Shown: piece after piece, positions 993-20,598 of the stretch | Numbering within the stretch: position 1 is the stretch's first letter | Layout: each line of letters opens with the position of its first letter | From: Povalibacter sp. | GTDB taxonomy: Bacteria; Pseudomonadota; Gammaproteobacteria; Steroidobacterales; Steroidobacteraceae | Assembly (NCBI RefSeq): GCF_036520495.1 | Contig: NZ_DATDJO010000016.1 | Location: 971 to 64,970 of the forward strand | Direction of reading: 5' to 3' | DNA: 64,000 nt | Notes under the pieces: generated by a model | Seen by the model: the letters and a program-made list of their open reading frames with translations, nothing else | Told to the model about the DNA's origin: nothing | Database searches by the model: none | Translations under genes and position numbers: made by a program

Positions 993-1613
993 TTACGCCG
1001 CGACGGCGTAACTCACTCCTTCCGCCTGCAGCGCGGCGCGCACGGCAGGACGCGCCGCGACACGATCCAGGTAGTCGTGCAGCACCGGCCACGGCGCAAG
1101 ATCGATGGCGACCGAATCGCTCCAGCGCAGCACCGCGAAGAGATACGCATCGGCGATCGTGTAGCGATCGTCTGCGGCCCACGACCGCGACCAGAGTTCG
1201 GCGCTGATCCAGTCGAAGCGGCGCGTCAGTCGCTGCACCGACCATTCCTTCAGGTCTGATGAAGCACGATCCCCTGCCAGCAAGGGGATAAAGGGCTTGT
1301 GCAGCTCCGCCGCCACAAAGGCGAGCCATTCCAGCACCCTGTAACGCGCCAACCCGGCATGGGGAATCAATCCCGCAAGCGGATGCAGATCCGCCAGGTA
1401 CTGCAGGATCACGGGGCCTTCGGTGAGCCGCCGGCCATCGTCCAGTTCCAGGACGGGCACGTAGTTCTTGCCGTGAATCGCCTCGAAATCTTCTCCCGTG
1501 CTGGTGCGATGCGTCCGCAGATCGACGCACTCGAGTGTGAATTCCAGCCCGACGTCCCGCAGCACGATGTGCGGCGCGAGCGAACAGGCGCCGGGCGAGT
1601 AATACAGTTTCAT
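993..1613 (-). CDS. Glutathione S-transferase (beta-class-like)
   Basis: MKLYYSPGACSLAPHIVL...VPVLELDDGRRLTEGPVILQYLAD is the canonical GST N-terminal thioredoxin-like fold signature. Start trimmed to the MKLYY ATG at 1613; the track ORF begins 6 codons upstream. Confidence 0.85.
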   Translation of the reverse strand: MKLYYSPGACSLAPHIVLRDVGLEFTLECVDLRTHRTSTGEDFEAIHGKNYVPVLELDDGRRLTEGPVILQYLADLHPLAGLIPHAGLARYRVLEWLAFVAAELHKPFIPLLAGDRASSDLKEWSVQRLTRRFDWISAELWSRSWAADDRYTIADAYLFAVLRWSDSVAIDLAPWPVLHDYLDRVAARPAVRAALQAEGVSYAVAA

Positions 1614-1865
1614 GGGCGGCTCCCTGTGCATGTGGCAACTGTCGACAGGGCAACAGTAAACATCCGATGCTCAATCCAACAGGTTCGAGACGCTCGCGAG
1701 CTGCGCAAATCGTCTGAGAATCGACACTCAGTGCTGGATTGATGAAACCGCCGAAACAGTCAATTTCTGCGCGCCGCGTCTTTCGATGAGGGGTCGCGGG
1801 CGTAGGCTAGGTGCTTGTCCAAGTCATCGTCGCCCCTTCTCCACACTTCAGTCAGGGCTCTTCGC

Positions 1866-2873
1866 ATGGACGTACTGTCGAACGTTTTGAATGTCACCAG
1901 TCTCGCCACCAGCGTAATCGGATCGCGTGAGTTCCTGGCGCCATGGGCCATCGTCGTCGATGCTCCGCAGGAAACTGCCGTGCACATCATCAGACGCGGC
2001 GCCGCGTGGTTGCGCCACGGCGATGCCGAGCCGATCCGCCTGAATGCCGGCGACATCGTGCTGCTCGCCAGCGGCAGCAAGCACGTGTTGTCGTCGGATC
2101 GCGATCCGCGCGAGCCCGAACCCGTCACACAAGCCATCGCGCGCGCCCACAACAACGTAGTGCCGTCACTGCGCGGGCGCAATGACGGCAGCGGTGAATC
2201 GACGCTGCTGCAGTGTGCCGGCTACAGCTTCTCCAGCGATGGGTTTTCACCCGAGGGTGCGCACCCGCTGCTGTCGCTGCTGCCACCGGTCATCGTCGTA
2301 CCGGCGGATCGCGTTAACGAAGATCCGGAATTGCAACTGCTGCAACGCCTGCTGGCCCACGAGGCAGCGCGTCGTGAGGCCGGTGTCGAACTGGTGCTGC
2401 CGCGATTGATCGACACACTGTTCGTCTATGTGCTGCGCGTGTGGTTGCGCGATCAACCGGAAGGCACGGCGGGGTGGCTCGGCGCGTTGCGGGATCCGCA
2501 GATCCGCAAGGCATTGACCCTGATCCACGAATCGCCGCAGGCGCCGTGGACCGTGGAGTCGCTCGCACGTCAGGCCGCGATGTCACGGGCCGCCTTTGCG
2601 AAACGCTTCATGGACCTGGTGGGCCAGCCGCCGCTGGCGTATGTCACGCGCTGGCGCATGGATCTCGCAGCGAAGTTGCTGCGTGAGTCACGCGAGCCGG
2701 TGGCGCGCATCGCGAGCAAGGTCGGCTATCTGTCGGAGACGGCATTCGCAAAGGCCTTCCGTCGACGTCGCAAGATGCCGCCGGGCGCGTATCGCTTCCA
2801 ACGCACACGACGTGCACGTGCAGCAGAAATTGGCGTGCCCGAGGTCGCACGCGTGGATCAGCAGGGAGTGTGA
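1866..2873 (+). CDS. AraC-family transcriptional regulator with N-terminal cupin-like domain
   Basis: N-terminus MDVLSNVLNV... is typical of cupin-AraC regulators. The C-terminus carries a double HTH (WTVESLARQAAMSRAAFAKRF...IASKVGYLSETAFAKAFRR). Start chosen at the second ATG (1866). Confidence 0.85.
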   Translation: MDVLSNVLNVTSLATSVIGSREFLAPWAIVVDAPQETAVHIIRRGAAWLRHGDAEPIRLNAGDIVLLASGSKHVLSSDRDPREPEPVTQAIARAHNNVVPSLRGRNDGSGESTLLQCAGYSFSSDGFSPEGAHPLLSLLPPVIVVPADRVNEDPELQLLQRLLAHEAARREAGVELVLPRLIDTLFVYVLRVWLRDQPEGTAGWLGALRDPQIRKALTLIHESPQAPWTVESLARQAAMSRAAFAKRFMDLVGQPPLAYVTRWRMDLAAKLLRESREPVARIASKVGYLSETAFAKAFRRRRKMPPGAYRFQRTRRARAAEIGVPEVARVDQQGV

Positions 2874-2983
2874 ACTCGCAGCGGGGCGTGGGACTCGGGC
2901 CAGGGAAGAGCGCACCTTCCCTTCTGCCCGAGCCCCGCCTTGACGTTACTGACTTCTGGTGACGATCTCCTCGTCGACAGCGG

Positions 2984-3934
2984 TTAGAAACCCTTGGACG
3001 CAACCGTCCAGTTAGGGAGTTGACCGAGGTCGTTGTCCGGCCCTACGAGGAAGTCGAGTGCTTCCGTATTGCCGTTCAGAGTGCCGTCCAGAAACTCGAC
3101 GACTGCCTGCACGAGCTGGAGCTGCACCGCGCGAGAGGCCGTGCCGAAGAAACCACCGTGGCCGGCCGTAGCGTGCGACGCGAACACAGCGGGTACCGCC
3201 TCTGTGCGCTCGTAGCTTCCGATGGAATTCGGATAGGCGACGTCGCCCGTTCCACCGGCTACGAACATCACGGGGCCGGAAAGATTGTTCAGATACTGAC
3301 GACACACGGCGAGCGGACCCGATTGACCGCCGGTGCTGTCATCCGGGAAGCAACCACTGTTCAGACTGACGACTGATTTCACGCGCGCATCGTGCTCGCC
3401 TGTCCAAAGCGCATCGATGCCTCCGCAAGAGTGACCCATCGTCGCAACCCGGCTGGCGTCGAGATGATTGTGATACTTCGGGCCGCCGCGGCCGGGAGAG
3501 GAGGTCGCCCAATTGATCGCGTTCTTCAAGCGATCCTCCGTTGCTTGCGCACCGGGGGCGGAGGACGCATCAGGTTCACCGTAAGCGATGACGACGAATC
3601 CGCGGGCCGCGAGCTGCATCAGGAAGTAGAGGTGGCCATCGTTACTCGCGGAGCACGCGCCGTTGCTCCAGGCCACGATCGGGAACTTGTCCTTGGGCCC
3701 GTTCAGATCAGCGGGACGATACACCGTGAAACCCGCAAGCCCCGGCGCATCCTCGCGCACCACATCAAGAAACTGATCCATCGCCGCAGGACTGGAATGC
3801 GGGTGATGGTGATGGTGCTCGCCCTTGTCCTTGTCCTTATCCTTGTGAGCGTGAGAGACGGAAACGATCATCGCACCCGCGAGGATCATCAATGGAATGT
3901 GCGCCTTGCGGGAAAGCAAACCGAATGTACTCAT
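2984..3934 (-). CDS. Secreted alpha/beta hydrolase (dienelactone-hydrolase/chlorophyllase-like) with His-rich N-terminal linker
   Basis: Signal-like MSTFGLLSRKAHIPLMILAGAMIVSVSHA, followed by HKDKDKDKGEHHHHHPH. Nucleophile elbow GHSCGG, with later D and H candidates (GTGDVAY, ATAGHGGF). Start trimmed to 3934. Confidence 0.7.
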   Translation of the reverse strand: MSTFGLLSRKAHIPLMILAGAMIVSVSHAHKDKDKDKGEHHHHHPHSSPAAMDQFLDVVREDAPGLAGFTVYRPADLNGPKDKFPIVAWSNGACSASNDGHLYFLMQLAARGFVVIAYGEPDASSAPGAQATEDRLKNAINWATSSPGRGGPKYHNHLDASRVATMGHSCGGIDALWTGEHDARVKSVVSLNSGCFPDDSTGGQSGPLAVCRQYLNNLSGPVMFVAGGTGDVAYPNSIGSYERTEAVPAVFASHATAGHGGFFGTASRAVQLQLVQAVVEFLDGTLNGNTEALDFLVGPDNDLGQLPNWTVASKGF

Positions 3935-4386
3935 CGTTGTAGCCTCGTAGTTATCGTTGAGCGCTCTGGCAACTCGCCAACGAATGGCAACAACGAGCCC
4001 CCACACCGAAGACGCGCTGCAGCCATCCTCGGCGATACCCCCTGGGCTGGAAACTCCGGCCTTCTGGTGATCCCTTCAATATCGCGGACGAGCTGACATG
4101 TCGCGACGAAGCGGTGACGCGGCGATGGCAGCTCGCCATTAAAGCAGTTGATTCAAGCAGACGTTAGATACCCGTCCGATGCGTGTCAATAGGGCGTTTC
4201 GTCCGTGACAATACCGAAGCAGATCCTCGCAGCATTTGGCCTGTGCCAGGGTCAACTGCCTGTTCGCTTCGCGCGCGGCGCGCGAGAATTTGTTTATGGA
4301 TCCGCTAACATCCGCACTGATGCAGACCGTTGAGCTGAACATCCTGTGTCCGCGCTGCGGGCAGACGTTGGCACGGAGACGCACGC

Positions 4387-4773
4387 ATGGCAGTGCATAT
4401 CGTTCGGTTGGGCAGCGCTCGTGGCGCCAACGAAGGGCCCCGATTCGGGACCGTGCGACGCCCGCCGCGTGGCGTACCCAGGAGCGAATACGCATCGCGG
4501 GACCTTTACGATGTCTGGCTGCCGAATCTGGCGCCGAGTGAAGAACTGGTGAAACTGGCTCTGAGCGCGGACGAACGCGCCTGGAAAACATTCGTGCGGC
4601 GCTATCGCGCCGAAATGAAAACCCCGGATGTCTCGCGCGTTCTGGATGCGCTTGCCGCGCTGTCACATCAGACGGATTTCGCGGTCGGCTGCTACTGCGA
4701 GAACGAAGCTCGCTGCCATCGATCCGTACTGCGCGAGCTGTTCAGGGAACGTGGCGCCAGCGTCGCGGACTAA
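4387..4773 (+). CDS. DUF488-family protein
   Basis: 128 aa. ...YDVWLPNLAPSEELV...W..F..RY..EM......L..L.......F.VGCYCENEARCHRSVL matches my recollection of the DUF488 pattern. Confidence 0.7.
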   Translation: MAVHIVRLGSARGANEGPRFGTVRRPPRGVPRSEYASRDLYDVWLPNLAPSEELVKLALSADERAWKTFVRRYRAEMKTPDVSRVLDALAALSHQTDFAVGCYCENEARCHRSVLRELFRERGASVAD

Positions 4774-4805
4774 TCCAGCGTCGCTGACTGAGCAGTGGCG
4801 ACTCG

Positions 4806-4994
4806 TCAATGATTGCGGCTCCATTCGTCCGGCGGATTCTGCCGACGGGTTTCGGCCGGATTCTTCGCTTCGCCTTTGCGATAACCGCGTTCGAACCAGC
4901 GGCGTTTGAACGCCACGTATGTCAGAACCAGTGCCAGGCCGATGAGGATCAACACTCCCCAGAAATGACCGAGAAATTCAGTGATCGGACCCAT
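4806..4994 (-). CDS. Small single-pass membrane protein (hypothetical)
   Basis: 62 aa with one hydrophobic helix (FWGVLILIGLALVLTYVAF) then a basic tail. Good SD (GGGAGAG) 7 nt upstream of the ATG. Third-position GC is only moderate. Confidence 0.4.
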   Translation of the reverse strand: MGPITEFLGHFWGVLILIGLALVLTYVAFKRRWFERGYRKGEAKNPAETRRQNPPDEWSRNH

Positions 4995-5210
4995 GGTGCT
5001 CTCCCGCGTGCGGTGGACACGTCAGCAGAACAACGAGCCGGCGGATGAATAAGTTCAAATGCGCTGCGAACGGCACGATGTCAGCATTTCCATCACCGCA
5101 TGCCGCGGCCCGCTCGGCGCAGCCGGGTGATCGAGTTTGTTATTTTCGGCGCGCGCGCATCCAGATCACGGCCACGACGATGGCGATCAGGCTGAGGATG
5201 ATCAGTAGTC

Positions 5211-5828
5211 TCATGAGTCGGTCGTGCCCGGTGTTGTGCTGTTGAAACGCTGCGTAAGCGCAGCGAGGTCTTCCGGCGTGTCGAGATCCACGGCCGCGTT
5301 TGGCATGGGCACTCGCACGACGCGAAAGCTGTTGCGCTCCAGGATCTGTCGCGCGCCCTGATCGCCCCGCAACTCTGCCAGTTCGCCGAAGCACATGCGC
5401 GGGAAAATCGCCGGCACGGCCACACGCTGGTCGTAGGTCGCAGCCGCGATCACGCCATCGGCCTCCTTCCAGGAGGCCGCCAACCGCTTGAGATCGTCGG
5501 CGCTTACGGCCACCTGGTCCCCCAGCAGGATCAGCACCGCGTCGGTCGCCGCGGATAGCGAGCCGACACCGAGGCGGATCGACGAGGCCATGCCCTCCTC
5601 CCAGCGACGATTCACGATGACGGACGCCGGCGAATGCGCGAGCAGGCGCGTCACCTCGCTGGCATGAGCGCCCACGACCACCGTCACGCTATGACCCGCC
5701 AGCGCCGTCGCGGCCGCTACGACGCCATGCAGCACGGGGTGACCGCCGAGCTTGACCAGTTGCTTGGGTTGGCCAAGGCGACTCGACGCGCCGGCCGCGA
5801 GAATCAATACATGCAGGCTTGCCGTCAT
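5211..5828 (-). CDS. MobA/MocA-like nucleotidyltransferase (molybdenum cofactor cytidylyl/guanylyl-transferase family)
   Basis: LILAAGASSRLGQPKQL...GG.P.L is the NTP-transferase P-loop-like motif of the MobA-like family. 205 aa. Confidence 0.75.
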   Translation of the reverse strand: MTASLHVLILAAGASSRLGQPKQLVKLGGHPVLHGVVAAATALAGHSVTVVVGAHASEVTRLLAHSPASVIVNRRWEEGMASSIRLGVGSLSAATDAVLILLGDQVAVSADDLKRLAASWKEADGVIAAATYDQRVAVPAIFPRMCFGELAELRGDQGARQILERNSFRVVRVPMPNAAVDLDTPEDLAALTQRFNSTTPGTTDS

Positions 5829-5838
5829 GCAGTAATCC

Positions 5839-5920
5839 GGAAGGAATAAAGGGCCGCGAAAGACCGTGACCGCAAGGCGACCAACGGAAGTCCCAGTGGG
5901 GGAATCCCACGGGGCAAAGG
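5839..5920. repeat. Intergenic repeat, family D copy 1
   Basis: GGGCCGCGAAAGACCGTGACCGCAAGG-CGACCAACGGAAGTCCC-AGTGGGGGAATCCCACGGGG. Shares a 17-nt block with D3 and the CGACCAACGGAAGTCCC word with D2. Confidence 0.7.
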
Positions 5921-6068
5921 ACTGGGCATATATGCGACCGGAAGATCCGGGAAATCTCTGAAGTTACGGAGTAAAGCAGATCGGATGTGAATCGATCACC
6001 TTCTTTTATGCGGTCTTTTGCGGCGCTCCTCTCTTATCCTATGGGCCGTCCTTTTAGAGCGTAATCCC

Positions 6069-6602
6069 ATGGCCATCCGTCCCGTCCTGAAAATGGGTGA
6101 TCCCATCCTGCTGCAGGTCGCAAGCCCCGTGGTCGAATTCGACACGCCCGAGCTGCGTTCACTGCTGATAGACATGCACGACACCATGGAATCGTTGCAG
6201 GGCGCGGGACTCGCGGCGCCGCAAATCGGTGTGTCGCTGCAGGTCGTCGTCTTCGGTGTCGGCAGGAATCCCCGCTACCCACAGGCCGAGGAAGTGCCCT
6301 ACACCATCCTGATCAATCCGCAGCTCGATCCGGTGGACGACATCATGGAAGACGGCTGGGAGGGATGCCTGTCCGTCCCCGGCATGCGCGGCCTGGTGCC
6401 ACGACACAAACGCCTGCGCTACCGCGGATTCGATCCGATGGGCGCACCCATCGATCGCACTGTCAGCGATTTTCATGCGCGGGTCGTGCAGCACGAGGTC
6501 GATCACCTGCTCGGCGTGCTCTACCCCATGCGCATCCGCGACCTGCGCAATTTCGGATTCAACGAAACCCTGTTCCCGGGTCAGCAGCTCGTGGACGATT
6601 GA
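6069..6602 (+). CDS. def: Peptide deformylase
   Basis: All three deformylase motifs are present: [24 protein letters not shown]. Start trimmed to [12 protein letters not shown] at 6069. Confidence 0.9.
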
Positions 6603-6800
6603 AGAGGTCGAAGAAGAATCTCCACGGGGGACATGACCAAAAGGAAATCCCGCGGGACGGGGCACCACGGGGTAGGAAGACATCTGCCGGGTGAGTCCCT
6701 TTGGTTAGCTGGAATGGAGCGTTCGACGGGTGTAGCTGTCGCTCTTCCTGAGTTCTTCATCTGACCCTGTGTTACCCCGTGGAACTTCTCCTTCTCGACT
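6603..6800. repeat. Intergenic palindromic repeat, family A copy 1 (def|gabD)
   Basis: Left arm GAAGAAGAATCTCCACGGGGGACA. Right arm is its imperfect complement, TGTTACCCCGTGGAACTTCTCCTTCTC. Internal CGGGACGGGGCACCACGGGG words. Confidence 0.75.
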
Positions 6801-6881
6801 CCGCTCGTCCCGGGCTGGACGCGCCACCCGCTGCTTCCTAGACTCTCGTCCCCTCCTTGCTTCTGCTCACGGAGAATCGTT

Positions 6882-8360
6882 ATGGCCGCCCTCCCGCAAT
6901 CGCAACAGCCGATGTTGCGCGACATGTCCCTCTTCCGACAGCAAGCGTTCGTGGGTGGCCATTGGGAAGACGCGCCGGATGGCAAGGTCAAGCAGGTCTT
7001 CAACCCGGCGAACGGCGCACTGATCGGCACGATCCCGAATCTCGGGGCGGAGGCGGCGAAGCGCGCCATCGATGCTGCCAACAAGGCGCTTCCCGACTGG
7101 CGTTCGCGGACCGCAAAGGAGCGCGCACAGATTCTGCGCAAGTGGTTCGATCTGATGATGGCGAACCAGGAAGACCTCGCCATTCTGATGACGGTCGAGC
7201 AGGGCAAGCCGCTGGTCGAGAGCCGCGGCGAAATCGCGTATGCCGCATCGTTCATCGAGTGGTTTGCCGAGGAGGGCAAGCGCGCCTATGGCGATGTCAT
7301 TCCGGCGCACGGCCGCGACAAGCGCATCGTGGTGCTGAAGCAGCCGATCGGCGTGACAGCCGCCATCACGCCCTGGAACTTCCCGGCGGCCATGATCACC
7401 CGCAAAGCCGGTCCGGCCCTCGCCGCAGGCTGCACGATGGTGATCAAGCCGGCGGAACTCACACCGTATTCGGCGCTGGCCATGTGCGTGCTCGCGGAAC
7501 GCGCCGGCATTCCTGCTGGCGTCATCTCGGTCGTGACCGGCGACTCGCGTCCGATCGGTGCGGAGTTCACCAGCAATCCCATCGTGCGCAAGCTGAGCTT
7601 CACCGGGTCGACGGCCGTCGGCAAGGTGCTCATGTCGCAGTGCGCGACCAACATTACCAAGGTCTCGCTGGAACTCGGCGGCAACGCGCCGTTCATCGTG
7701 TTCAACGACGCTGACCTCGATGCCGCCGTCGCCGGTGCGCTCGCCTCCAAGTACCGCAATGCCGGCCAGACCTGCGTCTGTGCGAACCGTCTGTTCGTGC
7801 AAAGCGGCGTCTACGATCGCTTTGCCGAGAAGCTCGCCGAGGCCGTGAAAGCCATGAAGGTCGGTGATGGTCTCGACAAGGAGACGAAGATCGGGCCGAT
7901 GATCGACGACAAGGCCGTGCAGAAAGTGGAAGAGCACGTGGCCGACGCCGTCAGCAAGGGCGCGAAAGTTGTCTACGGCGGCAAGCGCGGCGATGCGGCC
8001 GGCAGTTTCTACATACCCACGGTGATGACTGGCGTCACCGCCGACATGCTGGTGATGCGCGAAGAGACCTTCGGCCCGCTGGCGCCGCTCATGAAGTTCG
8101 AGACCGACGAAGAAGTGATCCGGCTGGCCAACGCCACCGAGTTCGGCCTGGCGAGCTACTTCTACAGCCGCGACATCGGCCGCATCTGGCGAGTCGCCGA
8201 GGCGCTCGAGTGCGGCATCGTCGGCATCAACGAAGGCATCATTTCAACCGAAGTCGCGCCCTTCGGCGGCGTCAAGGAGAGCGGCATCGGCCGCGAAGGC
8301 TCCAGGTACGGCCTCGAGGAGTACATGGAGATCAAGTACCTCTGCTTCGGCGGGATCTGA
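6882..8360 (+). CDS. gabD: NAD(P)+-dependent succinate-semialdehyde dehydrogenase
   Basis: 492 aa aldehyde dehydrogenase with ITPWNFP, catalytic SLELGGNAP and NAGQTCVCANR. Overall collinear with GabD/SSADH as I recall it. Confidence 0.85.
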   Translation: MAALPQSQQPMLRDMSLFRQQAFVGGHWEDAPDGKVKQVFNPANGALIGTIPNLGAEAAKRAIDAANKALPDWRSRTAKERAQILRKWFDLMMANQEDLAILMTVEQGKPLVESRGEIAYAASFIEWFAEEGKRAYGDVIPAHGRDKRIVVLKQPIGVTAAITPWNFPAAMITRKAGPALAAGCTMVIKPAELTPYSALAMCVLAERAGIPAGVISVVTGDSRPIGAEFTSNPIVRKLSFTGSTAVGKVLMSQCATNITKVSLELGGNAPFIVFNDADLDAAVAGALASKYRNAGQTCVCANRLFVQSGVYDRFAEKLAEAVKAMKVGDGLDKETKIGPMIDDKAVQKVEEHVADAVSKGAKVVYGGKRGDAAGSFYIPTVMTGVTADMLVMREETFGPLAPLMKFETDEEVIRLANATEFGLASYFYSRDIGRIWRVAEALECGIVGINEGIISTEVAPFGGVKESGIGREGSRYGLEEYMEIKYLCFGGI

Positions 8361-8388
8361 TCTCATCATCACAACCCAGCAGGCGTCG

Positions 8389-9504
8389 ATGGATTCCATA
8401 GATTGTGTAGTGATCGGCGCCGGGGTCATCGGTCTCGCCGTGGCGCGCGCGCTCGCGCTCGACGGCCGTGAGGTCGTCATTCTCGAAGCCGCCGATGCCT
8501 TCGGCACGGGCGTCAGTGCCCGCAGCAGCGAAGTCATTCACGCCGGCATCTACTACCCGCGCGGTTCGCTCAAGGCGACGCTGTGCGTGGCGGGACGTGA
8601 ACTGCTGTATCCGTTCTGCGCACGCGCGGGCGTCGAGCATCGCTGCTGCGGCAAGCTCATCGTCGCGACGTCCGATGAACAGGTCGAAGATCTGCGACTC
8701 ATCGATGCCGCGGCGCGCGGCAACGGCGTCACGCTGGAATGGATGAGCGCAGCGACGGTTCGGGACCTGGAGCCCGAGCTGAACTGTCGCGCCGCCCTGT
8801 TCTCGCCGCTGACCGGCATCATCGATACCCATGGCTACATGCAGGCGCTGCTCGGCGAAGCCGAGCAGGCGGGTGCCATTCTTGCGGTACGTAACAGCGT
8901 CATGCGCATGTGGCTGGAAACATCGAGCGTCCTGCTCGCGGTCAATCAGAATGAGCGCCCGGATCTGCGTGCGAATCTCGTGATCAATTGCGCGGGCCTG
9001 CACGCCACCCAGGTCGCTGCCGGCATCGAAGGCTTTCCAGCGGAACACATTCCACGCGCGCATTACGCACGCGGTCACTATTTTTCGACGACGAGTCGCT
9101 CACCGTTCCGGCACCTGATCTATCCGGTACCCGAACCTGGCGGATTGGGCGTGCACCTCACGCTGGATCTCGCCGGCCAGGCCCGCTTCGGTCCGGACGT
9201 CGAGTGGGTGGAGCAGCTCGATTATTCCGTGAGCCTCGACCGCGCCGACCGCTTCTACGGTGCAATCCGTCGCTTCTGGCCCGCACTCAGCGATGGCAGC
9301 CTGGTCCCCGCGTATGCGGGCATCCGCCCCAAGATCAGCGGACCGGGCGAACCCGCCGCGGATTTCCGCATCGATGGACCCGCTCGTCACGGCATCGCCC
9401 AGGTCATCAACCTGTTCGGCATCGAATCGCCGGGCATTACCTCCTCACTGGCCATCGCCGATCATGTCGCTGCGCTCGCCCGTCACGATAAGCTCAGTCC
9501 ATGA
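8389..9504 (+). CDS. FAD-dependent oxidoreductase, L-2-hydroxyglutarate oxidase/dehydrogenase-like
   Basis: Rossmann VVIGAGVIGLAVA. SSEVIHAGIYYPRGSLKA and HLIYPVPEPGGLGVHLT blocks resemble the LhgO/L2HGDH family. Sits next to gabD, as in the csiD-lhgO-gabD context. Confidence 0.7.
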   Translation: MDSIDCVVIGAGVIGLAVARALALDGREVVILEAADAFGTGVSARSSEVIHAGIYYPRGSLKATLCVAGRELLYPFCARAGVEHRCCGKLIVATSDEQVEDLRLIDAAARGNGVTLEWMSAATVRDLEPELNCRAALFSPLTGIIDTHGYMQALLGEAEQAGAILAVRNSVMRMWLETSSVLLAVNQNERPDLRANLVINCAGLHATQVAAGIEGFPAEHIPRAHYARGHYFSTTSRSPFRHLIYPVPEPGGLGVHLTLDLAGQARFGPDVEWVEQLDYSVSLDRADRFYGAIRRFWPALSDGSLVPAYAGIRPKISGPGEPAADFRIDGPARHGIAQVINLFGIESPGITSSLAIADHVAALARHDKLSP

Positions 9505-12190: not shown

Positions 12191-13063
12191 ATGACCACCG
12201 GTTCCTGCCTTTGCGGCACCGTCCGCTACGAAATCAACGGTCCATATCAGTGGATGGCTCACTGTCACTGCTCGATGTGCCGCAAACATCACGGCTCGCT
12301 GTTCGGCACCACCGTGGGCGTGACAGGCGAAAACTTTCGCTGGCTCGCGGGAGAGGACGCCATCGTCCACTACCGTTCCTCCGCGGCGTATGAGCGTCCG
12401 TTCTGTTCGCAATGCGGCTCGCCGGTGCCTCACGCGGCAGGGCCGGTCGTCATTTGCCCCGCGGGTGGACTCGAGGACGATCTGGATGCGAAACCGCTGG
12501 CACACATCTTCGTCAGTTCGAAATCGCCGCTGCACGAGATCAACGACGATCTGCAGCGCTTCGATGAATATCCACCGGGCTACGGAACCGCCATGCCGAC
12601 TCCGCAGAATCCCGCGGTGACCGCCGGCGGAACAGCGCTCCATGGCGGCTGTCTGTGCGGCGCAGTTGCATTCGAGATCGACGAGCAGCCGCGCAATCTC
12701 GTGAACTGCCATTGTTCACGCTGTCGCAAAAGCCGCGGCGCGGCTCACGGTACGAACTTCTTCACCCGGCTGGAAAAACTGCGCTGGACTCGCGGCGAGG
12801 ACAGCATTCGAACCTACAAGGTGCCCGGCGCGGAACTGTTCGCTGTCAGTTTCTGCGCCGATTGCGGCAGCAGCCTGCCCGCGCCGTTCACACCGATCAA
12901 ACGCTTCATCGTGCCGGCCGGCGCAGTCGATACGCCATTGCCCATCAAGGTGGGCATCAACATCTGGGTGGGATCGAAAGCGCCCTGGTTCGACCTGGCC
13001 GACGGGCTGCCGCGGTTCGAGGCCATGCCGCCCATGGATCGCGTGCGTGAAGTGATGTTCTAA
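12191..13063 (+). CDS. Tandem-duplicated GFA (glutathione-dependent formaldehyde-activating/CENP-V-like) zinc protein
   Basis: Two copies of the GFA Cys pattern: CLCGTVRYE...CHCSMCRKHHG...CSQCG and CLCGAVAFE...CHCSRCRKSRG...CADCG. Confidence 0.8.
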   Translation: MTTGSCLCGTVRYEINGPYQWMAHCHCSMCRKHHGSLFGTTVGVTGENFRWLAGEDAIVHYRSSAAYERPFCSQCGSPVPHAAGPVVICPAGGLEDDLDAKPLAHIFVSSKSPLHEINDDLQRFDEYPPGYGTAMPTPQNPAVTAGGTALHGGCLCGAVAFEIDEQPRNLVNCHCSRCRKSRGAAHGTNFFTRLEKLRWTRGEDSIRTYKVPGAELFAVSFCADCGSSLPAPFTPIKRFIVPAGAVDTPLPIKVGINIWVGSKAPWFDLADGLPRFEAMPPMDRVREVMF

Positions 13064-14629: not shown

Positions 14630-15280
14630 ATGCTGCCAATCCTGTACTCGTTCCGCCGCTGTCCCTACGCAATGCGGGCACGCCTGGCGCTCGATGCGAG
14701 CGCACAGGCGTGCGAACTTCGTGAGGTGGTACTGAAGCACAAGCCCGACGCCATGCTGCAGGCATCGCCGAAAGGCACCGTGCCGGTGCTGATCGTCAGC
14801 GACGGTACGGTCATCGACGAGAGCCTCGACATCATGACGTGGGCGCTGGATCGCAACGATCCCGAGCAGTGGCTGACGCCCGAGATGGAATCACACACGC
14901 AGATGCTGTCGCTGGTCCGGCAATTCGACACACATTTCAAATTCCATCTCGATCGCTACAAATATCCCACCCGTTACGCGGACGCCGATGCCGATGCCAG
15001 TCGTGACGAGGCCAGTGCGGACTTGCAGTCGCTGGAAGTCAGACTGACCGGCACCCGCTGGCTGTACGGCGAACGCACCGCCCTTGCCGATATGGCCATC
15101 GCGCCGTTCGTGCGTCAGTTCGCGAGCGTGGATGCAAGCTGGTTCGCAAGCCAGCCGTGGCCACAGGTGCGACGCTGGCTCGCAACGATCGTCGCCTCTG
15201 CACGATTCCAGCGCGTCATGCGACCAGTCGATGCGTGGATTGCAGGCGCACCGGGCATCGCTTTTCCATTCGATCACTGA
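14630..15280 (+). CDS. Glutathione S-transferase-like protein
   Basis: MLPILYSFRRCPYAMRARLAL...GTVPVLIVSDGTVIDESLDIM is a GST/glutaredoxin-like N-domain. Start trimmed to 14630 because the upstream 71 codons of the track ORF look non-coding. Confidence 0.7.
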   Translation: MLPILYSFRRCPYAMRARLALDASAQACELREVVLKHKPDAMLQASPKGTVPVLIVSDGTVIDESLDIMTWALDRNDPEQWLTPEMESHTQMLSLVRQFDTHFKFHLDRYKYPTRYADADADASRDEASADLQSLEVRLTGTRWLYGERTALADMAIAPFVRQFASVDASWFASQPWPQVRRWLATIVASARFQRVMRPVDAWIAGAPGIAFPFDH

Positions 15281-15604
15281 CCCATCTCACGGATGAATCT
15301 GCGGAGGTTTGCCGGTAACGTCCGCGGCGCCCGAATCCGTTCGTCGCCGACCGGCTGTTTGCCACGTGACCTGCCCGGGATATCGCGCGGCTCCTGCAGA
15401 ACAGGGCAGAACGAGGCTCGATGGTTGACGAATTCCGCAAGCTGCTCGGCTCGTTCTCGCATGGAGCACTTCGATATGTATTGAGGCATCAAAGCGCTGA
15501 CGCAGACGAGCGGGCGAACGGAACGCCTCCCGGAAGGGCAGTGGCATTCCCCCACCGATCCGTCCGGGATACTCTCCGCAGCAGGCGCTTCGGAGTCGAC
15601 ACGT

Positions 15605-16219
15605 ATGCCGTCACAGAGCTTTGTATCCGCACTTCCCTTCGTGCTGCGCTGGGAGGGCGGCTACGTCAACCATCGCAATGATCCCGGCGGTCCGACCAAT
15701 CGCGGCGTCACCCAGAAGGTGTACGACGACTGGCGCACGCGACAGGGATTACCGCCGCGCGACGTGCAGCAGCTCGAAGACGCCGAGATGCACGCCATCT
15801 ACGAAGCCGGCTACTGGATTCCTCCGCGCTGCGATCTGCTGCAAGGCAGCCTCGACCTGGTTCACTTCGATACCGCCGTCAACATGGGCGTGGGTCGTGC
15901 CGTGCGCTTCCTGCAGACGGTCGTGAAATGTCCTGCCGATGGCGACTTCGGCCCGGGCACTGAAAAGGCCGTCGCCGGCTGCGATCACGGAGCGGCCGTT
16001 GCCGCGTATTGCGACACGCGCGAGCAGTTCTACCGACGGCTCGTCGAGAAAGACGCCAAATTCGGCGACTTCCTCAAGGGTTGGCTGAACCGGTTGAATG
16101 CATTGCGTCGCGAAGTCGGCTTGCCCGGCTTCGAAGCCGCGGCGTCGCTGGATTTCGGCGACACCCATTACATCTATAACGTGTCCGGACTGGACCGGAT
16201 ACCCGGCGTAGATCGCTGA
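15605..16219 (+). CDS. GH108-type muramidase with C-terminal peptidoglycan-binding (PG_binding_3-like) domain
   Basis: LRWEGGYVNHRNDPGGPTNRGVTQ is the GH108 catalytic-Glu block. C-terminal DGDFGPGTEKA...FYRRLV...FLKGWLNRL matches the associated PG-binding domain. No signal peptide. Confidence 0.8.
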   Translation: MPSQSFVSALPFVLRWEGGYVNHRNDPGGPTNRGVTQKVYDDWRTRQGLPPRDVQQLEDAEMHAIYEAGYWIPPRCDLLQGSLDLVHFDTAVNMGVGRAVRFLQTVVKCPADGDFGPGTEKAVAGCDHGAAVAAYCDTREQFYRRLVEKDAKFGDFLKGWLNRLNALRREVGLPGFEAAASLDFGDTHYIYNVSGLDRIPGVDR

Positions 16220-16236
16220 ATCCCACGGGAGATCCC

Positions 16237-17175
16237 ATGCCGCACGTCACGTTCATACATGGCATCGCCAACAAACCGCCCGCGGACGACTTGCTGCGCA
16301 TCTGGCGCCGCACGCTCGCCGACGCCGCCGAGCCGCTGCCGCTCGGTGATCTCGGCGTCACGAGTTCTCTCGTCTACTGGGCCGACCTGATGTACGGCGA
16401 TCCCGACAGCGATCTGTCCGCGCACGAGGGCGTGCTGGAAAACACACCGCAGGCGGTGGACGCGAGCGGCGGCGAATCGCCACCACAGCCACGCAACGCC
16501 GAAGAAGCCGCATTCCTCGCCCGCCTGCGCAGCGAGATGACGGAATTGTCCGATGCAGAAATGGCGGCTCCCGATGCGCCTGCCGTACCGGCGCAGCCGC
16601 AGGGAGCACTCGAACGGGTACCGCTGCCATGGTTTCTCAAGAAACGCATCATGAATGCCTTCCTGCGCGACGTGCATCACTACCTGTTCGATGTCGAGTA
16701 CGCGCCGCCGGGGCGCAGCGCCGTGCACATCCAGCAGACGATCCGCCAACGATTCATCGATACGGTGTGTGATGCCGCGGTGACCCGGCCGCACATCGTC
16801 GTCTCGCACAGCATGGGCACCGTAATCGCCTACGACTGTCTCAAACGCGTCGGTACCTGCGCCAATGTCGATGGGTTCATCACCATCGGCAGCCCGCTGG
16901 GACTTGATGAAATCCAGGACAAGCTGCGTCCGGAATGGAATCGCGCAAACGGCTTTCCGCGCAGCAAGGTGGCCAGGGACTGGGTGAACATTTTCGACCG
17001 GCTCGATCCGGTGTGCGGCTTCGATCCCGCGCTCGCCAACGACTATCGTGACAACGACGTCGGCACGATCAAGGACCAGGTCGTCGTGAACGATGGCGCG
17101 TGGCGTCACTCGGCCACGAAGTACCTGCGGCAACCGGTGTTCGGCGCCACGCTGCGCGGCATGCTCGACCTGTAA
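16237..17175 (+). CDS. Lipase/esterase-like alpha/beta hydrolase (Ser-Asp-His)
   Basis: Oxyanion-type FIHGI at the N-terminus, nucleophile elbow VSHSMGT, later FDRLDPV and WRHS as Asp/His candidates. No signal peptide. Starts 18 nt after the upstream stop. Confidence 0.65.
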   Translation: MPHVTFIHGIANKPPADDLLRIWRRTLADAAEPLPLGDLGVTSSLVYWADLMYGDPDSDLSAHEGVLENTPQAVDASGGESPPQPRNAEEAAFLARLRSEMTELSDAEMAAPDAPAVPAQPQGALERVPLPWFLKKRIMNAFLRDVHHYLFDVEYAPPGRSAVHIQQTIRQRFIDTVCDAAVTRPHIVVSHSMGTVIAYDCLKRVGTCANVDGFITIGSPLGLDEIQDKLRPEWNRANGFPRSKVARDWVNIFDRLDPVCGFDPALANDYRDNDVGTIKDQVVVNDGAWRHSATKYLRQPVFGATLRGMLDL

Positions 17176-17179
17176 CCGC

Positions 17180-18772
17180 ATGGTCAACGACAGCGCTACG
17201 ACCGAGTTGCGCGCAACGGCGCAGCGCGTGCTCGATCAGCTCAGCGGTCTGAACGCGGCAGCGGCGCTGCCCGAGGCACGCAAGCTGGTGGAAACATTGC
17301 GCGATGCGCGCGAGTACGAGTGCCTCATTCAGCTGGCCGAAAGCCTGGGTCGCCTCGATCCGAAGGATGCAAAGACCCGGCGCCTGTACGCACAGGCGCT
17401 CATCGAGATGGGCCAGGTCAGCGTCGCCATCGATGTGCTGCAGGCGCTGGCCCATCGGCTCGACAAGGACGATCACGAACTCGCCGAAGCGACCGGATTG
17501 CTCGGGCGCGCATACAAGCAGATATTCTTCGATGCGCGCGACAAGACGGGCGCGGGCGCAAGGCATGCGCTGCAGCAGGCGATCGCCGCGTATCGCAAGC
17601 CGTTCGAAAACAATCCGGCCAATGTCTGGCATGGCGCCAACGTCGTCGCGCTGATCGCCAACTGCAAGCGCCTGGGCATTCCCATTGCCACCGACCTGAA
17701 TCCCGTCGCCGTCGCCACGCAGCTGGTGAACTCCCTCGAGTCGATGCCCGAGGCAAATCGCGATCAGTGGTATCTGCCTTCGCTGGCCGAGGCCTACCTG
17801 GGACTCGAGCGCTGGGACGATGTCGAACGCACCGTGCGTGCCTACGCCGCGGGTCCCGATGCCAAGGCATTCCTGATGGCGAGTTCCCTGCGTCAGTTCA
17901 CCAGGGTCTGGAATCTGGAAGACACGGAGCGCGGCCGTGGCCTGGTGTCGATCCTGCGCGCACGGCTGCTGGAAATGCAGGGTGGCGAGTTGCGACTGGA
18001 AGCGGCCGATCTGCAACGACTGCATCGACAGGCACCGCCGAGCGATGTGCAGCTCGAAGCCATTCTCGGCAAGCGCGGTGCGCAGACGTTCAAGTGGTGG
18101 AAGATGGGTGTGGCGCGGGCTCAGTCGGTGGCATCGATCCGTCCGCGCCTGGGCAGCCGCATTGGTACGGGCTTTCTGGTGAAAGCCGGCGACCTCGGCC
18201 TTATGCCACCCGACGAACTCGTGCTGCTCACCAACTTCCACGTCGTGAATCCGAACGGTGCGAGCCCCGGCATCCGTCCCGAAGATGCAGAGATCATTTT
18301 CGAGGCGGCGGATGCAGAAACGGTCTACGAAATCGACAAGTTGCTGTGGAGCTCACCGCCGGAACAATGCGACGCCAGTATTTTGCGACTCAACAAATCC
18401 GTCACCGGCATCGAGCCATTGCCGATCGCAAGAGCGCTGCCCGTGCTCGACGATTCGCCACAGGTGTACGTCGTCGGTTATCCGGGCGGCCGCGACCTGT
18501 CGTTCTCGTTCCAGGACAACGAACTGCTCGATCACGAGGGCCCGCCCGCCGGCAAGCCACAGATTCCGGATGTCTGTCGCGTGCATTACACCGCGCCGAC
18601 GGAAGGCGGCAGTTCCGGCAGTCCCGTGTTCAACGCAGCGTTGTGGCAGGTCATCGCCCTGCATCACAAGGGCGGCAAGATCGGCATGCCGCGACTGAAT
18701 GGCGCGACCGGCACCTATGCCGCCAATGAAGGCATTTCGATCCAGTCGATCGCAGCGTTTCCCAAACAGTAG
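17180..18772 (+). CDS. TPR-like (DUF4071/ASK1-type) regulatory domain fused to an S1 (trypsin-like) serine protease
   Basis: C-terminal triad blocks GTGFLV...LLTNFHVV, CDASILRL, GGSSGSPVF. The N-terminal ~330 aa are helical, with GLLGRAYKQ...AIAAYRKPFE...WHGANVVAL recalling DUF4071. ATG at 17180 lies 5 nt after the upstream stop. Start trimmed from the track ORF. Confidence 0.75.
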   Translation: MVNDSATTELRATAQRVLDQLSGLNAAAALPEARKLVETLRDAREYECLIQLAESLGRLDPKDAKTRRLYAQALIEMGQVSVAIDVLQALAHRLDKDDHELAEATGLLGRAYKQIFFDARDKTGAGARHALQQAIAAYRKPFENNPANVWHGANVVALIANCKRLGIPIATDLNPVAVATQLVNSLESMPEANRDQWYLPSLAEAYLGLERWDDVERTVRAYAAGPDAKAFLMASSLRQFTRVWNLEDTERGRGLVSILRARLLEMQGGELRLEAADLQRLHRQAPPSDVQLEAILGKRGAQTFKWWKMGVARAQSVASIRPRLGSRIGTGFLVKAGDLGLMPPDELVLLTNFHVVNPNGASPGIRPEDAEIIFEAADAETVYEIDKLLWSSPPEQCDASILRLNKSVTGIEPLPIARALPVLDDSPQVYVVGYPGGRDLSFSFQDNELLDHEGPPAGKPQIPDVCRVHYTAPTEGGSSGSPVFNAALWQVIALHHKGGKIGMPRLNGATGTYAANEGISIQSIAAFPKQ

Positions 18773-18780
18773 CGCACGCC

Positions 18781-19545
18781 TCAGATCTCGATGTTCTTCA
18801 CATAGTCGCTGACGAAGCTCTGCACACGTCCGGCGATCACATCCTTGTCCGCCTTCAGGCGCTCCGCCGTAGTCGCAAGTGCCGCCGTGCTCTTGCGCAG
18901 CTCGGCCTTCTGGTTCGAGAACTTGAAGAACAGCACCTGCGTGATCGATTTCTCCGCAGTGACGCTACAGGCCAGCAGCGAAATGACCGGCTGCCCGTGT
19001 GCGTCGGCATCGATATAGCTGATCTGGAACTTCGCGCCGCTGGCGTGCTGGCTCGACTGATCGAACAGCGTGATCCACGGCGTCTGCGCATCCATTTCAT
19101 TCAGACCCTGCAACACCGACACGACCAGCGACGTGGCTGCAGCGGCCGGCCCCAGCATGGCGGTCAGCACCGGAATGATCGCCTTGTGCACGCCGAGATT
19201 CCGGTTGTTCACTTCCTGGACCTGTTCTTCGCTGGCGTGGACCGTCCAACCGATGTTGCTCAGCACATCGCGATACTTGCGATGCCAGTCGAACACCGAA
19301 CCCGCCTGGGCGTTGGCCTTGTTGGCTGCGAGCTGCGCGAGCAGCATGGAATTGGCGATCAGCGGGCGCAGCTCGGTTGCGACGGACGGGCTGAACTCCG
19401 CCAGTTGCGCCCCCACCGTGACGACTTCCTGATGATCCGTGAACTGCGGCAGCGCAGGCGGCGCGGCACTTTCGAACTGCGGCCCGAGATCGGGCAGATC
19501 CAGCGCCACGACAAAATCGCGAATGAACTGTGCGGAGCGGCTCAT
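18781..19545 (-). CDS. Hypothetical protein (orphan, 254 aa)
   Basis: Clean ORF with normal amino-acid composition, convergent with the protease gene. The stop codons are 8 nt apart. I recognise no motif, TM segment or signal peptide. Confidence 0.55.
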   Translation of the reverse strand: MSRSAQFIRDFVVALDLPDLGPQFESAAPPALPQFTDHQEVVTVGAQLAEFSPSVATELRPLIANSMLLAQLAANKANAQAGSVFDWHRKYRDVLSNIGWTVHASEEQVQEVNNRNLGVHKAIIPVLTAMLGPAAAATSLVVSVLQGLNEMDAQTPWITLFDQSSQHASGAKFQISYIDADAHGQPVISLLACSVTAEKSITQVLFFKFSNQKAELRKSTAALATTAERLKADKDVIAGRVQSFVSDYVKNIEI

Positions 19546-19654
19546 GCGTATCCCGGGAAGCTGCAGTGCTGATAGCGCTCGAGCTTACGCCCGCAAACGG
19601 AAATGAGGCCAGCGCGAAAATTGGCAGTGGGACTTTCGATTCGACGTCACAGAA

Positions 19655-19766
19655 AGGGACTCTCCACGAGGTACACGGGGAGACACGGGGTGGAAGAATC
19701 GCATTCTTGGTGTTTCCTTCCCCGTGTCCCCCCGTGTCCCCCGTGGAAATCTTCGATTCTTTCTCC
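19655..19766. repeat. Intergenic palindromic repeat, family A copy 3
   Basis: CTCTCCACGAGGTACACGGGGAGACACGGGGTGGAAGAATCGC|ATTCTTGG...CCCCGTGTCCCCCCGTGTCCCCCGTGGAAATCTTCGATTCTTTCTCC. Near-perfect long hairpin centred on AAGAATcgcATTCTT. Confidence 0.8.
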
Positions 19767-19785
19767 GCTGATGCCACTGCAAGTG

Positions 19786-20598
19786 CTAGAACCGCAACCG
19801 CCACTGCAACGTCGCGCCGCCGTCGGCGGCCTGCATGGCCAGCGATGTGCCGCTGCCCTGTTCAAGTCCCAGGAATGCGTCGTTGAAGAATGAGGCAAGG
19901 AAGTTGCCGATCGCCATACCGACCAGCGTGTCGGACGGATAGTGCCAGCCCGCTTCGATGCGTGCCCAGGACGTGCCGAGCGTGAGCGCTGTCAGCCCGG
20001 CGTCGGCGGCGCCGCGCCAGCCGTCGCTCATGTCGATGGATTGCAGATTGCGCGACGCCAGGCGCGTATGCACGGCCGAGGCCGAGGTGTGCCCGGACGG
20101 GAAGCTCGCACTGTCGTCACCGTTCGGTCGCTCGCGATCGGCGACATCCTTCAGGCCGTTGGTGACCAGCACCGTGGAACTCACCGCCGCGATGCCGACC
20201 AGCGTTCCCTTGGCCTTGTTGACGAGCCAATCGCCAGCGTCCGGTCCACTCGGAGTCGCCGCGATCGTAATGTAGTGAGCGAGCGCCGAGGCATTGCGCA
20301 GATCGTCACTCCAGTTCTCGGCATTGCGTTGTGAGCCAAAGACCGGCGTATGGTCGCGTGCCCAATCGGAGGTGCGCCGATCCCAGTCATCGATCTGGAA
20401 GACCGCGGCACCGACGAGCGGCGCCCAGACCCAGGGATCTTTCGCGGCAATGGTCGCGGCACTGCGTACGCGATCCCAGCCGGGGGCGATGGTCGCGTCT
20501 TCGCCCCAGTCGCGGCCATTGGGAAGCGTGGCGCAGCCGGTGATGCTGCAACACAGTAGTACGAATGAGGCTCGTGAGACGCAGGTTGAGCGGTTCAT
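19786..20598 (-). CDS. PAP2-family (acid) phosphatase lipoprotein
   Basis: Lipobox LLCCSITGCA. PAP2 motifs DRERPNG, SFPSGHTS, SWARIEAGWHYPSD. Confidence 0.8.
   Translation of the reverse strand: MNRSTCVSRASFVLLCCSITGCATLPNGRDWGEDATIAPGWDRVRSAATIAAKDPWVWAPLVGAAVFQIDDWDRRTSDWARDHTPVFGSQRNAENWSDDLRNASALAHYITIAATPSGPDAGDWLVNKAKGTLVGIAAVSSTVLVTNGLKDVADRERPNGDDSASFPSGHTSASAVHTRLASRNLQSIDMSDGWRGAADAGLTALTLGTSWARIEAGWHYPSDTLVGMAIGNFLASFFNDAFLGLEQGSGTSLAMQAADGGATLQWRLRF

Follow-up and report, generated by a model that had tools for sequence, protein, structure and literature searches.

What brings a muramidase, a lipase-like hydrolase, and a protease, each of them lacking any visible means of export, together in one tightly packed run of bacterial genes? 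The question is raised by a locus of Povalibacter sp. (contig NZ_DATDJO010000016.1), within the 64,000-nt stretch of DNA that was analyzed as a whole and is termed the window below. Three genes on the + strand encode a GH108-type muramidase with a peptidoglycan-binding domain, an α/β-hydrolase, and a protease in which a TPR-S domain precedes a trypsin fold, while a fourth gene converges on them from the − strand and encodes a 254-aa protein with the predicted fold of Cyt toxins (termed Cyt-like below). The original prediction for this locus held that latent envelope-destroying effectors are kept here under the control of a sensor-protease, either as an abortive-infection or programmed-lysis module or as a contact-independent toxin set. 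Our analysis supports the former, for which the underlying class has been demonstrated experimentally with other effectors, including an α/β-hydrolase zymogen (PMC12642450), and lends no support to the latter. On balance, the four genes probably form a suicide module for envelope lysis that is gated by its protease and belongs to the bacterial protease-effector conflict class, a class devoted to immunity or programmed death, with abortive infection as the most likely biological role.

The case rests first on genetic linkage. One genome per species was scanned (185,579 species genomes), yielding 230 relatives of the protease, and 80 loci were retrieved; in these, partner genes were counted with the four window proteins as tblastn queries, and 65 of the loci have adequate flanks. 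The protease is accompanied by GH108 plus hydrolase in 27 of the 65 loci, by the hydrolase only in 11, by GH108 plus the Cyt-like gene in 8, by all three partners in 7, by GH108 only in 5, by the Cyt-like gene only in 1, and by none in 6. Since one or more partners accompany the protease in 59/65 loci of other taxa, the arrangement lies far beyond chance. Nor is it confined to close relatives, with GH108 and/or hydrolase genes preceding the protease gene at 36 to 77% protease identity, across Alpha-, Beta-, and Gammaproteobacteria, Acidobacteriota, Verrucomicrobiota (Chthoniobacteraceae), and Nitrospira. The cassette is also found on rhizobial (Sinorhizobium) and Agrobacterium plasmids, where the RefSeq names read [quoted passage not shown] In four protein clusters (P0029, P0089, P0101, and P0106), GH108, PG_binding_3, TPR-S, and Trypsin_2 domains are even joined in single polypeptides. 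The 254-aa gene, which had been labeled an orphan, is instead a conserved fourth partner, lying as the immediate neighbor of the cassette in 16/65 loci.

The protease carries matches to TPR-S (PF20308; 64.5 bits against a cut-off of 27.6), MAP3K_TRAF_bd (46.5 bits), and Trypsin_2 (70 bits), in keeping with the trypsin-fold protease behind about 330 residues of helical repeats that had been read from the DNA. The length of 559 aa that had been given for it is that of the longest-open-reading-frame extension from an ATG at 17093, and this extension (17093-17179) runs over the hydrolase gene's final 83 nt; the protein starts instead at the ATG at 17180 and has 530 aa, because more than 100 homologues are 529-535 aa in length and align from residue 1. 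The family comprises more than 1100 clusters, and the catalytic triad (H354/D398/S479) is invariant in the homologue alignment. A profile search matched the TPR region of ASK1/MAP3K5 (5ulm; E 0.004), and the TPR-S domain is strongly conserved (mean column identity between taxa, 72%); it is presumed to be a sensor or regulatory module. For the protease domain, the only sequence relatives in the PDB are glutamyl endopeptidases (V8/Esp, S1B), which are matched weakly (E 9e-4 to 6e-3, the former with a profile) and with which it has the segments T..GG.SGSPVFN and HxxGG in common.

Profile searches, which had been suggested as a check on the original prediction, placed the GH108 protein and the protease in Pfam families, left the hydrolase with sub-threshold matches only (Abhydrolase_6, Hydrolase_4, and LCAT) and the 254-aa protein, the family of which is unannotated, with none at E ≤ 0.1, and returned neither a PADLOC system nor an NCBIfam equivalog for any of the four proteins; structure prediction followed by Foldseek searching, suggested likewise for the 312-aa and 254-aa proteins, identified an α/β-hydrolase and a Cyt fold, respectively. 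The AlphaFold2 (AF2) model of the hydrolase (predicted local distance difference test [pLDDT] 75, predicted template modeling score [pTM] 0.81) matched the DDHD domain of Nir2, esterases, LipA/minimal lipases, and oligopeptidase B, with the DDHD family being related to phospholipase A1. The residues of the anticipated Ser-Asp-His triad, namely S192 (the nucleophile, within SHSMG), D254/D257, and H291, are invariant in the alignment, and an oxyanion-hole HG is located at residues 8-9. Adjoining the protease in 45/65 loci, the hydrolase is, to judge from its model, probably a lipase- or phospholipase-like zymogen. Its internal insert is bordered upstream by Glu64/Glu68 and downstream by Glu126 in LER.PLPW. 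The first site, [HYF]E[GST] (Glu64), occurs in 45/51 homologues and the second, [LFY]ER.PLPW (Glu126; scored as [LFYE]ER.P[LI]P), in 51/51, with the pLDDT of the model being 46-59 at residues 61-80 and 111-130. Glu64/Glu68 and Glu126 are therefore termed here candidate double cleavage sites of the hydrolase.

This layout can be compared, by architecture only, with that of the LcHydrolase/LcCaspase pair of Lysobacter capsici, in which a zymogen hydrolase is cut twice and an internal fragment is released, resulting in cell death (Evans et al. 2025 preprint, PMC12642450); Kaur et al. 2020 (PMC7159879) had been the first to note the pairing of an α/β-hydrolase with a protease. Both hydrolases are of ~300 aa, have lipase/oligopeptidase-like fold matches (by HHpred, the nearest to LcHydrolase are lipases and oligopeptidases; PMC12642450), are encoded immediately upstream of a sensor-fused protease, and hold an internal segment between two conserved sites, for a division of ~73 + 44 + 180 aa in LcHydrolase versus the ~64 + 62 + 186 aa proposed here. 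The sites themselves differ. LcHydrolase is cut at R73 and R117, at conserved Arg-Gly junctions (PMC12642450), whereas the present hydrolase has no conserved Arg-Gly and the motifs flanking its insert contain Glu. The proteases differ as well, with that of the window being a trypsin-fold (V8-like) serine protease with a TPR-S sensor, unlike LcCaspase, and serving two extra partners, i.e., GH108 and the Cyt-like protein.

For the Cyt-like protein, the AF2 model (36 homologues; pLDDT 79.6, pTM 0.82) was searched against the PDB with Foldseek. The Cyt1Aa protoxin was matched at E 2e-6, along with Cyt2Ba, Evf, volvatoxin A2, and Dickeya CytC, and the top 11 matches are all of the Cyt fold (probability 1.00, E 2e-6 to 2e-3). 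A gasdermin identity for this protein was considered and rejected, with no gasdermin among the Foldseek matches; against viral structures, the model recovered low-TM giant-virus unknowns only, which are uninformative. The modeled elements run from an N-terminal extension through a β-hairpin, an αA/αB hairpin, a strand, a hydrophobic αC/αD hairpin, and three long strands to C-terminal helices, in an order that agrees with the published description of Cyt1Aa. The predicted fold, with two helical hairpin layers over a mixed β-sheet in ~250 aa, is thus like that of Cyt δ-endotoxins, volvatoxin A2, and Evf. A single hydrophobic stretch (residues 119-150, score 1.79) is buried in the model as a helical hairpin.

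Cyt1Aa is a protoxin activated through the loss of ~30 N-terminal residues (PMC7052140), and the N-terminal extension of the Cyt-like protein is placed where Cyt1Aa has this propeptide. The candidate propeptide terminates in the motif LDLP..(G)P.[FLY]E[STAG], including Glu25, which is present in 18/18 protease-adjacent copies and is situated, in the model, in a disordered loop ahead of the first hairpin. By analogy with Cyt1Aa, the Cyt-like protein is probably a latent membrane-disrupting protoxin. It would thereby resemble the effectors of gasdermin-protease and Pepco/EACC1-protease modules, as a latent membrane permeabilizer from which a sensor-protease is predicted to remove a short terminal peptide, but it differs from them in having the Cyt-toxin fold. 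It would differ from the known Cyt members too, which are secreted or crystalline, attack eukaryotic membranes, and are activated by host gut proteases, whereas the Cyt-like protein would be a cytoplasmic part of a self-directed module and would be activated by a dedicated neighboring protease.

The Cyt-like family comprises 1380 clusters (profile search of 1.84 billion representative proteins), within which the domain is fused to Peptidase_C14 caspases (in both orders), to TIR plus receiver domains, to DUF4062, and to Endonuclease_NS (NucA); because of these fusions, we regard it as a recurrent protease-associated part of conflict systems. Its gene lies 15-380 nt from its neighbor in the cassette and is usually divergent from GH108, though sometimes convergent as in the window; at loci L022 and L085 it stands directly upstream of the protease gene, with an overlap between its stop and the start of the protease in L085. 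In the protease-seeded sample, the Cyt-like gene is enriched in loci with GH108 (15/47 versus 1/18, p=0.03) and depleted in those with the hydrolase (p=0.03). An obligate GH108/Cyt-like pairing is not claimed, as Cyt-like-seeded look-ups gave pairs without GH108.

The GH108 protein matches Glyco_hydro_108 (100.8 bits) and PG_binding_3 (43.3 bits), both above cut-offs, which bears out the lysozyme with a peptidoglycan-binding domain named in the original prediction; it falls below the NCBIfam holin-associated muramidase equivalog (56 bits against a cut-off of 240). Its phage relatives, GH108/PG_binding_3 endolysins from 523 phage records, reach at most 44% identity, in alignments limited to residues 1-168, and lack the linker and tail that follow. 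In 50/54 homologues, a GLPG[FY]E[AS] linker (counted as GLPG[FYHQ]E) stands directly after PG_binding_3, and the fusion proteins of GH108 with the TPR-S-trypsin protease keep the GLPGFE motif and a DFGDT..I tail at the junction. To judge from these sequence features, the GH108 protein would be a latent N-acetylmuramidase with a clade-specific C-terminal extension; Glu177 is followed by a candidate cleavage site, and the tail beyond it may serve as a tether or be inhibitory. In most homologues this tail ends in a conserved acidic peptide, e.g., GEDPSYDF, that recalls the C-terminal peptides bound by TPR domains, and the window protein and one other copy (L003) end otherwise, in GVDR and GLDR, respectively.

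Holin-endolysin cassettes contain the same GH108 and PG_binding_3 domains. As in those cassettes, the muramidase would rely on a partner protein to damage the membrane, because it has no export signal; as had been noted from the sequence, none of the three proteins encoded on the + strand has a signal peptide or transmembrane segment (maximum Kyte-Doolittle 19-residue score 0.78-1.42). GH108 genes are present in 47/65 loci, and 42 of these 47 also have the hydrolase and/or the Cyt-like gene, which fits a membrane breach preceding the attack on the wall. Unlike holin-endolysin cassettes, the present genes are not in a phage and include no holin, with the lipase-like hydrolase and the Cyt-like protein as the putative membrane attackers; and unlike phage endolysins, the muramidase is sometimes fused to the protease.

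Invariant Glu motifs are located at the borders between folded domains and low-confidence linkers in all three partners. The strongest support for these motifs as cleavage sites comes from their covariation with protease class. Cyt-like copies with an Arg-Gly linker adjoin a CHAT protein in 5/5 cases and those with Phe/Leu-Glu adjoin a trypsin-type protease in 20/20, a split with a nominal p of 2e-5 that overstates independence because the sequences are interrelated. CHAT is a caspase-type protease, of a class that cuts between Arg and Gly (PMC12642450). The CHAT loci encode a giant protein of ~1850 aa with DUF7379, LCAT, CHAT, and TPR-S domains, next to a Cyt-like gene and a Peptidase_M15_3 or PG_binding_1 protein, and often a TIR_2/FGE-sulfatase gene too; their Peptidase_M15_3 has no signal peptide and bears a polybasic C-terminal tail. 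Since a sensor-protease, a lipase-like hydrolase, a wall hydrolase, and a Cyt-like protein recur together with non-homologous parts, the combination itself would be the functional unit. A wider proposition, that of a widespread self-lysis immune class in which a TPR-S-regulated trypsin or CHAT protease unlocks a Cyt-fold pore-former, a lipase, and a peptidoglycan hydrolase together, is plausible, and we advance it tentatively.

From the linkage, fusions, domain and fold identities, motifs, and genomic context described here, we infer a trigger, cleavage events, an order of action, and a role as follows. All four proteins would be harmless as synthesized in the cytoplasm. The TPR-S domain would be triggered, maybe by a nucleotide-derived signal that TIR-type enzymes, often encoded nearby in other genomes, would supply, or by another infection or stress cue, upon which the protease would cut its partners in exposed linkers, probably after conserved Glu residues. 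Excision of the ~60-residue insert would turn the hydrolase into an active lipase- or phospholipase-like enzyme, removal of the ~25-residue N-terminal propeptide would convert the Cyt-like protein to a membrane permeabilizer, and the GH108 muramidase would be severed from its C-terminal tail or, in the fusions, from the protease. Once the hydrolase and/or the Cyt-like protein had breached the inner membrane, the muramidase would reach the peptidoglycan in a holin-like manner, leading to cell lysis.

A different part could be assigned to the GH108 protein within such a scheme, with GH108/PG_binding_3 serving as an input or tethered adaptor that, for example, senses cytosolic muropeptides or wall damage, and only the hydrolase and/or the Cyt-like protein doing the killing. 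In the fusion proteins, GH108 does lie N-terminally, as sensor domains often do; peptidoglycan-binding domains are among the sensors fused to Pepco-linked proteases (PMC12642450); the 11 hydrolase-only loci indicate that GH108 is dispensable; and a cytoplasmic muramidase is without substrate until the membrane is breached. We nevertheless consider this unlikely. The WEGG catalytic motif (residues 16-19) is invariant in 54 GH108 homologues, arguing for retained enzymatic activity, and the GLPGFE linker is conserved like the sites in the other partners. Moreover, the CHAT version swaps in non-homologous hydrolases of phage-endolysin type (Peptidase_M15_3), such that the property common to both versions is wall hydrolysis.

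The reading of the cassette as a suicide module draws further on its surroundings in other genomes. Among the 130 nearest non-core neighbors, a Pfam census counted TIR_2 (11), TPR-S (10), Patatin (8), FGE-sulfatase (4), PGDYG (4), ThsB_TIR (3), nSTAND1 (2), and pYEATS (2), with TIR+FGE, nSTAND1, and ParA-TIR-STAND genes as further recurrent neighbors. A TPR-S protein of ~676 aa with a SLOG-like C terminus is encoded near the cassette in 22/80 loci. A passage in a preprint (bioRxiv 10.1101/2023.05.26.542521) attributes TPR-S-centered assemblies with patatin, TIR, and SLOG partners to Burroughs & Aravind 2020. Relative to such TPR-S/ASK-signalosome-like systems, as that passage presents them, the cassette has the same TPR-S domain, and TPR-S "core" proteins with patatin, TIR, and SLOG are often its neighbors; it differs in joining TPR-S to a trypsin-fold protease in one protein that is coupled to envelope attackers, and in having no TIR or SLOG in the window. 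Our full-text literature search for TPR-S with SLOG or TIR found nothing.

Housekeeping or developmental autolysis and wall remodeling, whether for cell separation, for the release of DNA, vesicles, or public goods, or for stress lysis, would offer another explanation, one in which the protease controls endogenous autolysins and which does without conflict with phages or mobile elements. The neighbors in the window are housekeeping genes, as had been stated from the outset (DAO, OsmC, MFS, GFA, VOC, GST, OMP, PAP2, and MacAB/TolC-type efflux), sequence conservation is high and includes the sensor domain, and protease-effector modules may also answer to general stress (PMC12642450). A role of this kind is improbable all the same, given a spread so sporadic as to amount to 230 relatives in 185,579 species genomes, neighborhoods that differ even in the closest relatives, carriage on conjugative or mega-plasmids, the enrichment of TIR, STAND, patatin, and TPR-S genes as neighbors elsewhere, and the fusion of the Cyt-like domain to TIR, caspase, and NucA.

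The cassette could also be pictured as an exported toxin set aimed at other cells, akin to type VI Tge/Tle effectors or to a Cyt-like cytolysin, with the protease acting in maturation or immunity. Among secreted weapons there are known examples of muramidases, of lipases, and of Cyt-fold toxins, and contact-dependent delivery needs no signal peptide; yet neither in the window nor among the recurrent neighbors are secretion-system, PAAR/VgrG, or periplasmic immunity genes found beside the cassette, and fusions of GH108 to the TPR-S protease and of Cyt-like domains to caspase or TIR fit intracellular regulation rather than export, making this very unlikely. Lastly, a degraded prophage lysis cassette or chance juxtaposition is effectively refuted, as the original prediction had argued for the prophage, in that the GH108/PG_binding_3 architecture is typical of the endolysins in phage records but neither 50,697 phage genomes nor IMG/VR gave a match to the protease, the phage genomes gave none to the Cyt-like protein, the recurrent neighbors include no phage structural or integrase genes and are conflict-system genes elsewhere, the arrangement is kept in most loci, and fusion proteins exist.

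Several observations weigh against a protease-gated suicide module as the function of the four genes. The defense-island context proposed for the cassette holds for other genomes, with their TIR, TPR-S, patatin, and STAND neighbors, and not for the window, in which no TIR, STAND, or other signal-generating gene is found. PADLOC-DB 2.0 contains no system model for the cassette, giving only weak trypsin-domain matches (RT-Protease_XI and LmuA; E ~1e-6) and no match for GH108, the hydrolase, or the Cyt-like protein. At ~60% identity across phyla, sensor domain included, the protease is unusually conserved for an arms-race system. V8-type Glu specificity normally needs a free N terminus, and the protease domain here, being C-terminal, is without one. 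The Glu sites of the hydrolase are not unique either, as the insert holds further invariant acidic residues (D75 and E90). The Foldseek TM-scores to Cyt toxins are moderate (0.4-0.5, or 0.3-0.5 over all top 11 matches), and a 36-sequence profile gave no PDB match at E ≤ 10; because no sequence-level link to Cyt toxins was found, the Cyt fold is claimed for the 254-aa protein and not membership in the family. Encoded on the opposite strand, the Cyt-like gene is not co-transcribed with the other three. In the 5 loci with GH108 as sole partner, its passage through the membrane is unexplained, and for the module as a whole, cleavage, toxicity, and phage defense are predictions.

Other features touch on the cassette less directly (Table 1). 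The tight packing of the three + strand genes, with gaps of 17 nt and 4 nt, is reproduced at the same coordinates in the open reading frame (ORF) table. Base composition is flat over the cassette region, and a promoter/terminator consensus scan of 15200-19900 found none beyond shuffle expectation. Within the 240 nt that separate the Cyt-like start codon from the PAP2 stop codon, a repeat search found an inverted repeat with imperfect 28-nt arms (19663-19690 and 19720-19747; 89% complementary) and an internal CCCCGTGTCC tandem; it may be a PAP2 terminator or a regulatory site/operator, and its membership in the module is uncertain. Two long antisense ORFs (16174-17187 and 17069-18241) are high-GC shadow ORFs. 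Upstream of the cassette, a gene at 12191-13063 for a protein with a tandem pair of GFA (glutathione-dependent formaldehyde-activating) domains is followed by VOC and GST genes, which together make up a small detoxification cluster.

Table 1. Positions of the cassette genes and their parts in the window, and of related gene sets in retrieved loci (locus coordinates)
Feature	Position	Strand	Details
GH108 gene	15605-16219	+	204 aa (ORF table)
GH108 linker and tail	16118..16216	+	GLPGFE, residues 172-177, then 27-residue tail, residues 178-204
α/β-Hydrolase gene	16237-17175	+	312 aa; 17 nt 3′ of GH108 gene
Hydrolase internal insert	16399..16626	+	~residues 55-130; variable in sequence and length
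TPR-S/trypsin protease gene	17180-18772	+	530 aa; ATG 4 nt past hydrolase stop
TPR-S/MAP3K-TRAF-binding-like helical repeat domain	17180..18172	+	~residues 1-331
S1 trypsin-fold, V8-like serine protease domain	18164..18772	+	His354, Asp398, Ser479
Cyt-like gene	18781-19545	−	254 aa; convergent with protease gene, 8 nt separating stop codons
Cyt-like candidate propeptide	19545-19471	−	Residues 1-25, ending LDLP..GPQFE, with SA following the candidate cut
CHAT-version locus L083	6001-12762		
CHAT-version locus L086	4625-12762		
CHAT-version locus L087	6001-12756		
CHAT-version locus L088	1-6762		
TPR-S/PGDYG/patatin trio, L043	~1600-8415		
TPR-S/PGDYG/patatin trio, further examples			L045, L048, L050, L052, L059, L072, L073

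Certain of the retrieved loci merit description in their own right. A trio of genes found next to the cassette encodes the ~676-aa TPR-S/SLOG-like protein, a ~140-aa PGDYG-like protein, and a ~392-aa patatin-like phospholipase, and is probably a separate TPR-S-centered conflict system co-located with the cassette. On plasmid pK101b of Sinorhizobium sp. K101 (L082, 1-13077), the cassette of GH108, hydrolase, and protease lies between large TIR-domain proteins, one of 1422 aa being encoded immediately downstream; these are candidates for the generators of a signal to the TPR-S sensor. At L040 (7367-9445, − strand), a 692-aa protein with Trypsin_2 and Endonuclease_NS domains adjoins a TPR-S protease that is without GH108, hydrolase, or Cyt-like partners. 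The combination of Trypsin_2 and Endonuclease_NS is the NucA-peptidase type of Kaur et al. 2020 (PMC7159879), and NucA-type matches to the protease domain also occur on several plasmids.

Protease-licensed death effectors, the pairing of an α/β-hydrolase with a protease, and the TPR-S domain are all already known. The ten protease-associated effector families described in PMC12642450 include neither GH108 or any wall hydrolase nor a Cyt-like protein, and our literature search did not link GH108 or Cyt-family toxins to phage defense. In the literature covered, which does not extend to the original TPR-S description, no precedent was found for a peptidoglycan hydrolase coupled to a protease, fusions included, for a Cyt-fold partner, or for the multi-effector, envelope-layered combination.

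Ultimately, protease-licensed death effectors have only recently been recognized as a major logic of prokaryotic immunity, to which the cassette and its CHAT counterpart would add a wall hydrolase and a Cyt-like toxin as two new effector types, while showing several effectors directed against successive layers of the envelope under one protease. For further study, the system offers handles in the predicted sites (Glu25, Glu64/68 plus Glu126, and Glu177), the catalytic residues, and the natural fusion proteins, and the conserved TPR-S sensor, related to the TPR region of ASK1, offers a target for a ligand search. If the wider proposition of a self-lysis immune class is true, such modules would be the host's own protease-gated counterpart of the phage holin-endolysin pair, and peptidoglycan hydrolases would constitute a new category of protease-licensed death effector. 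The Cyt fold, known from mosquitocidal Bacillus thuringiensis (Bt) toxins and fungal volvatoxin, would then be an ancient bacterial suicide effector, and the cassette suggests an evolutionary source of the Cyt-type cytolysins.

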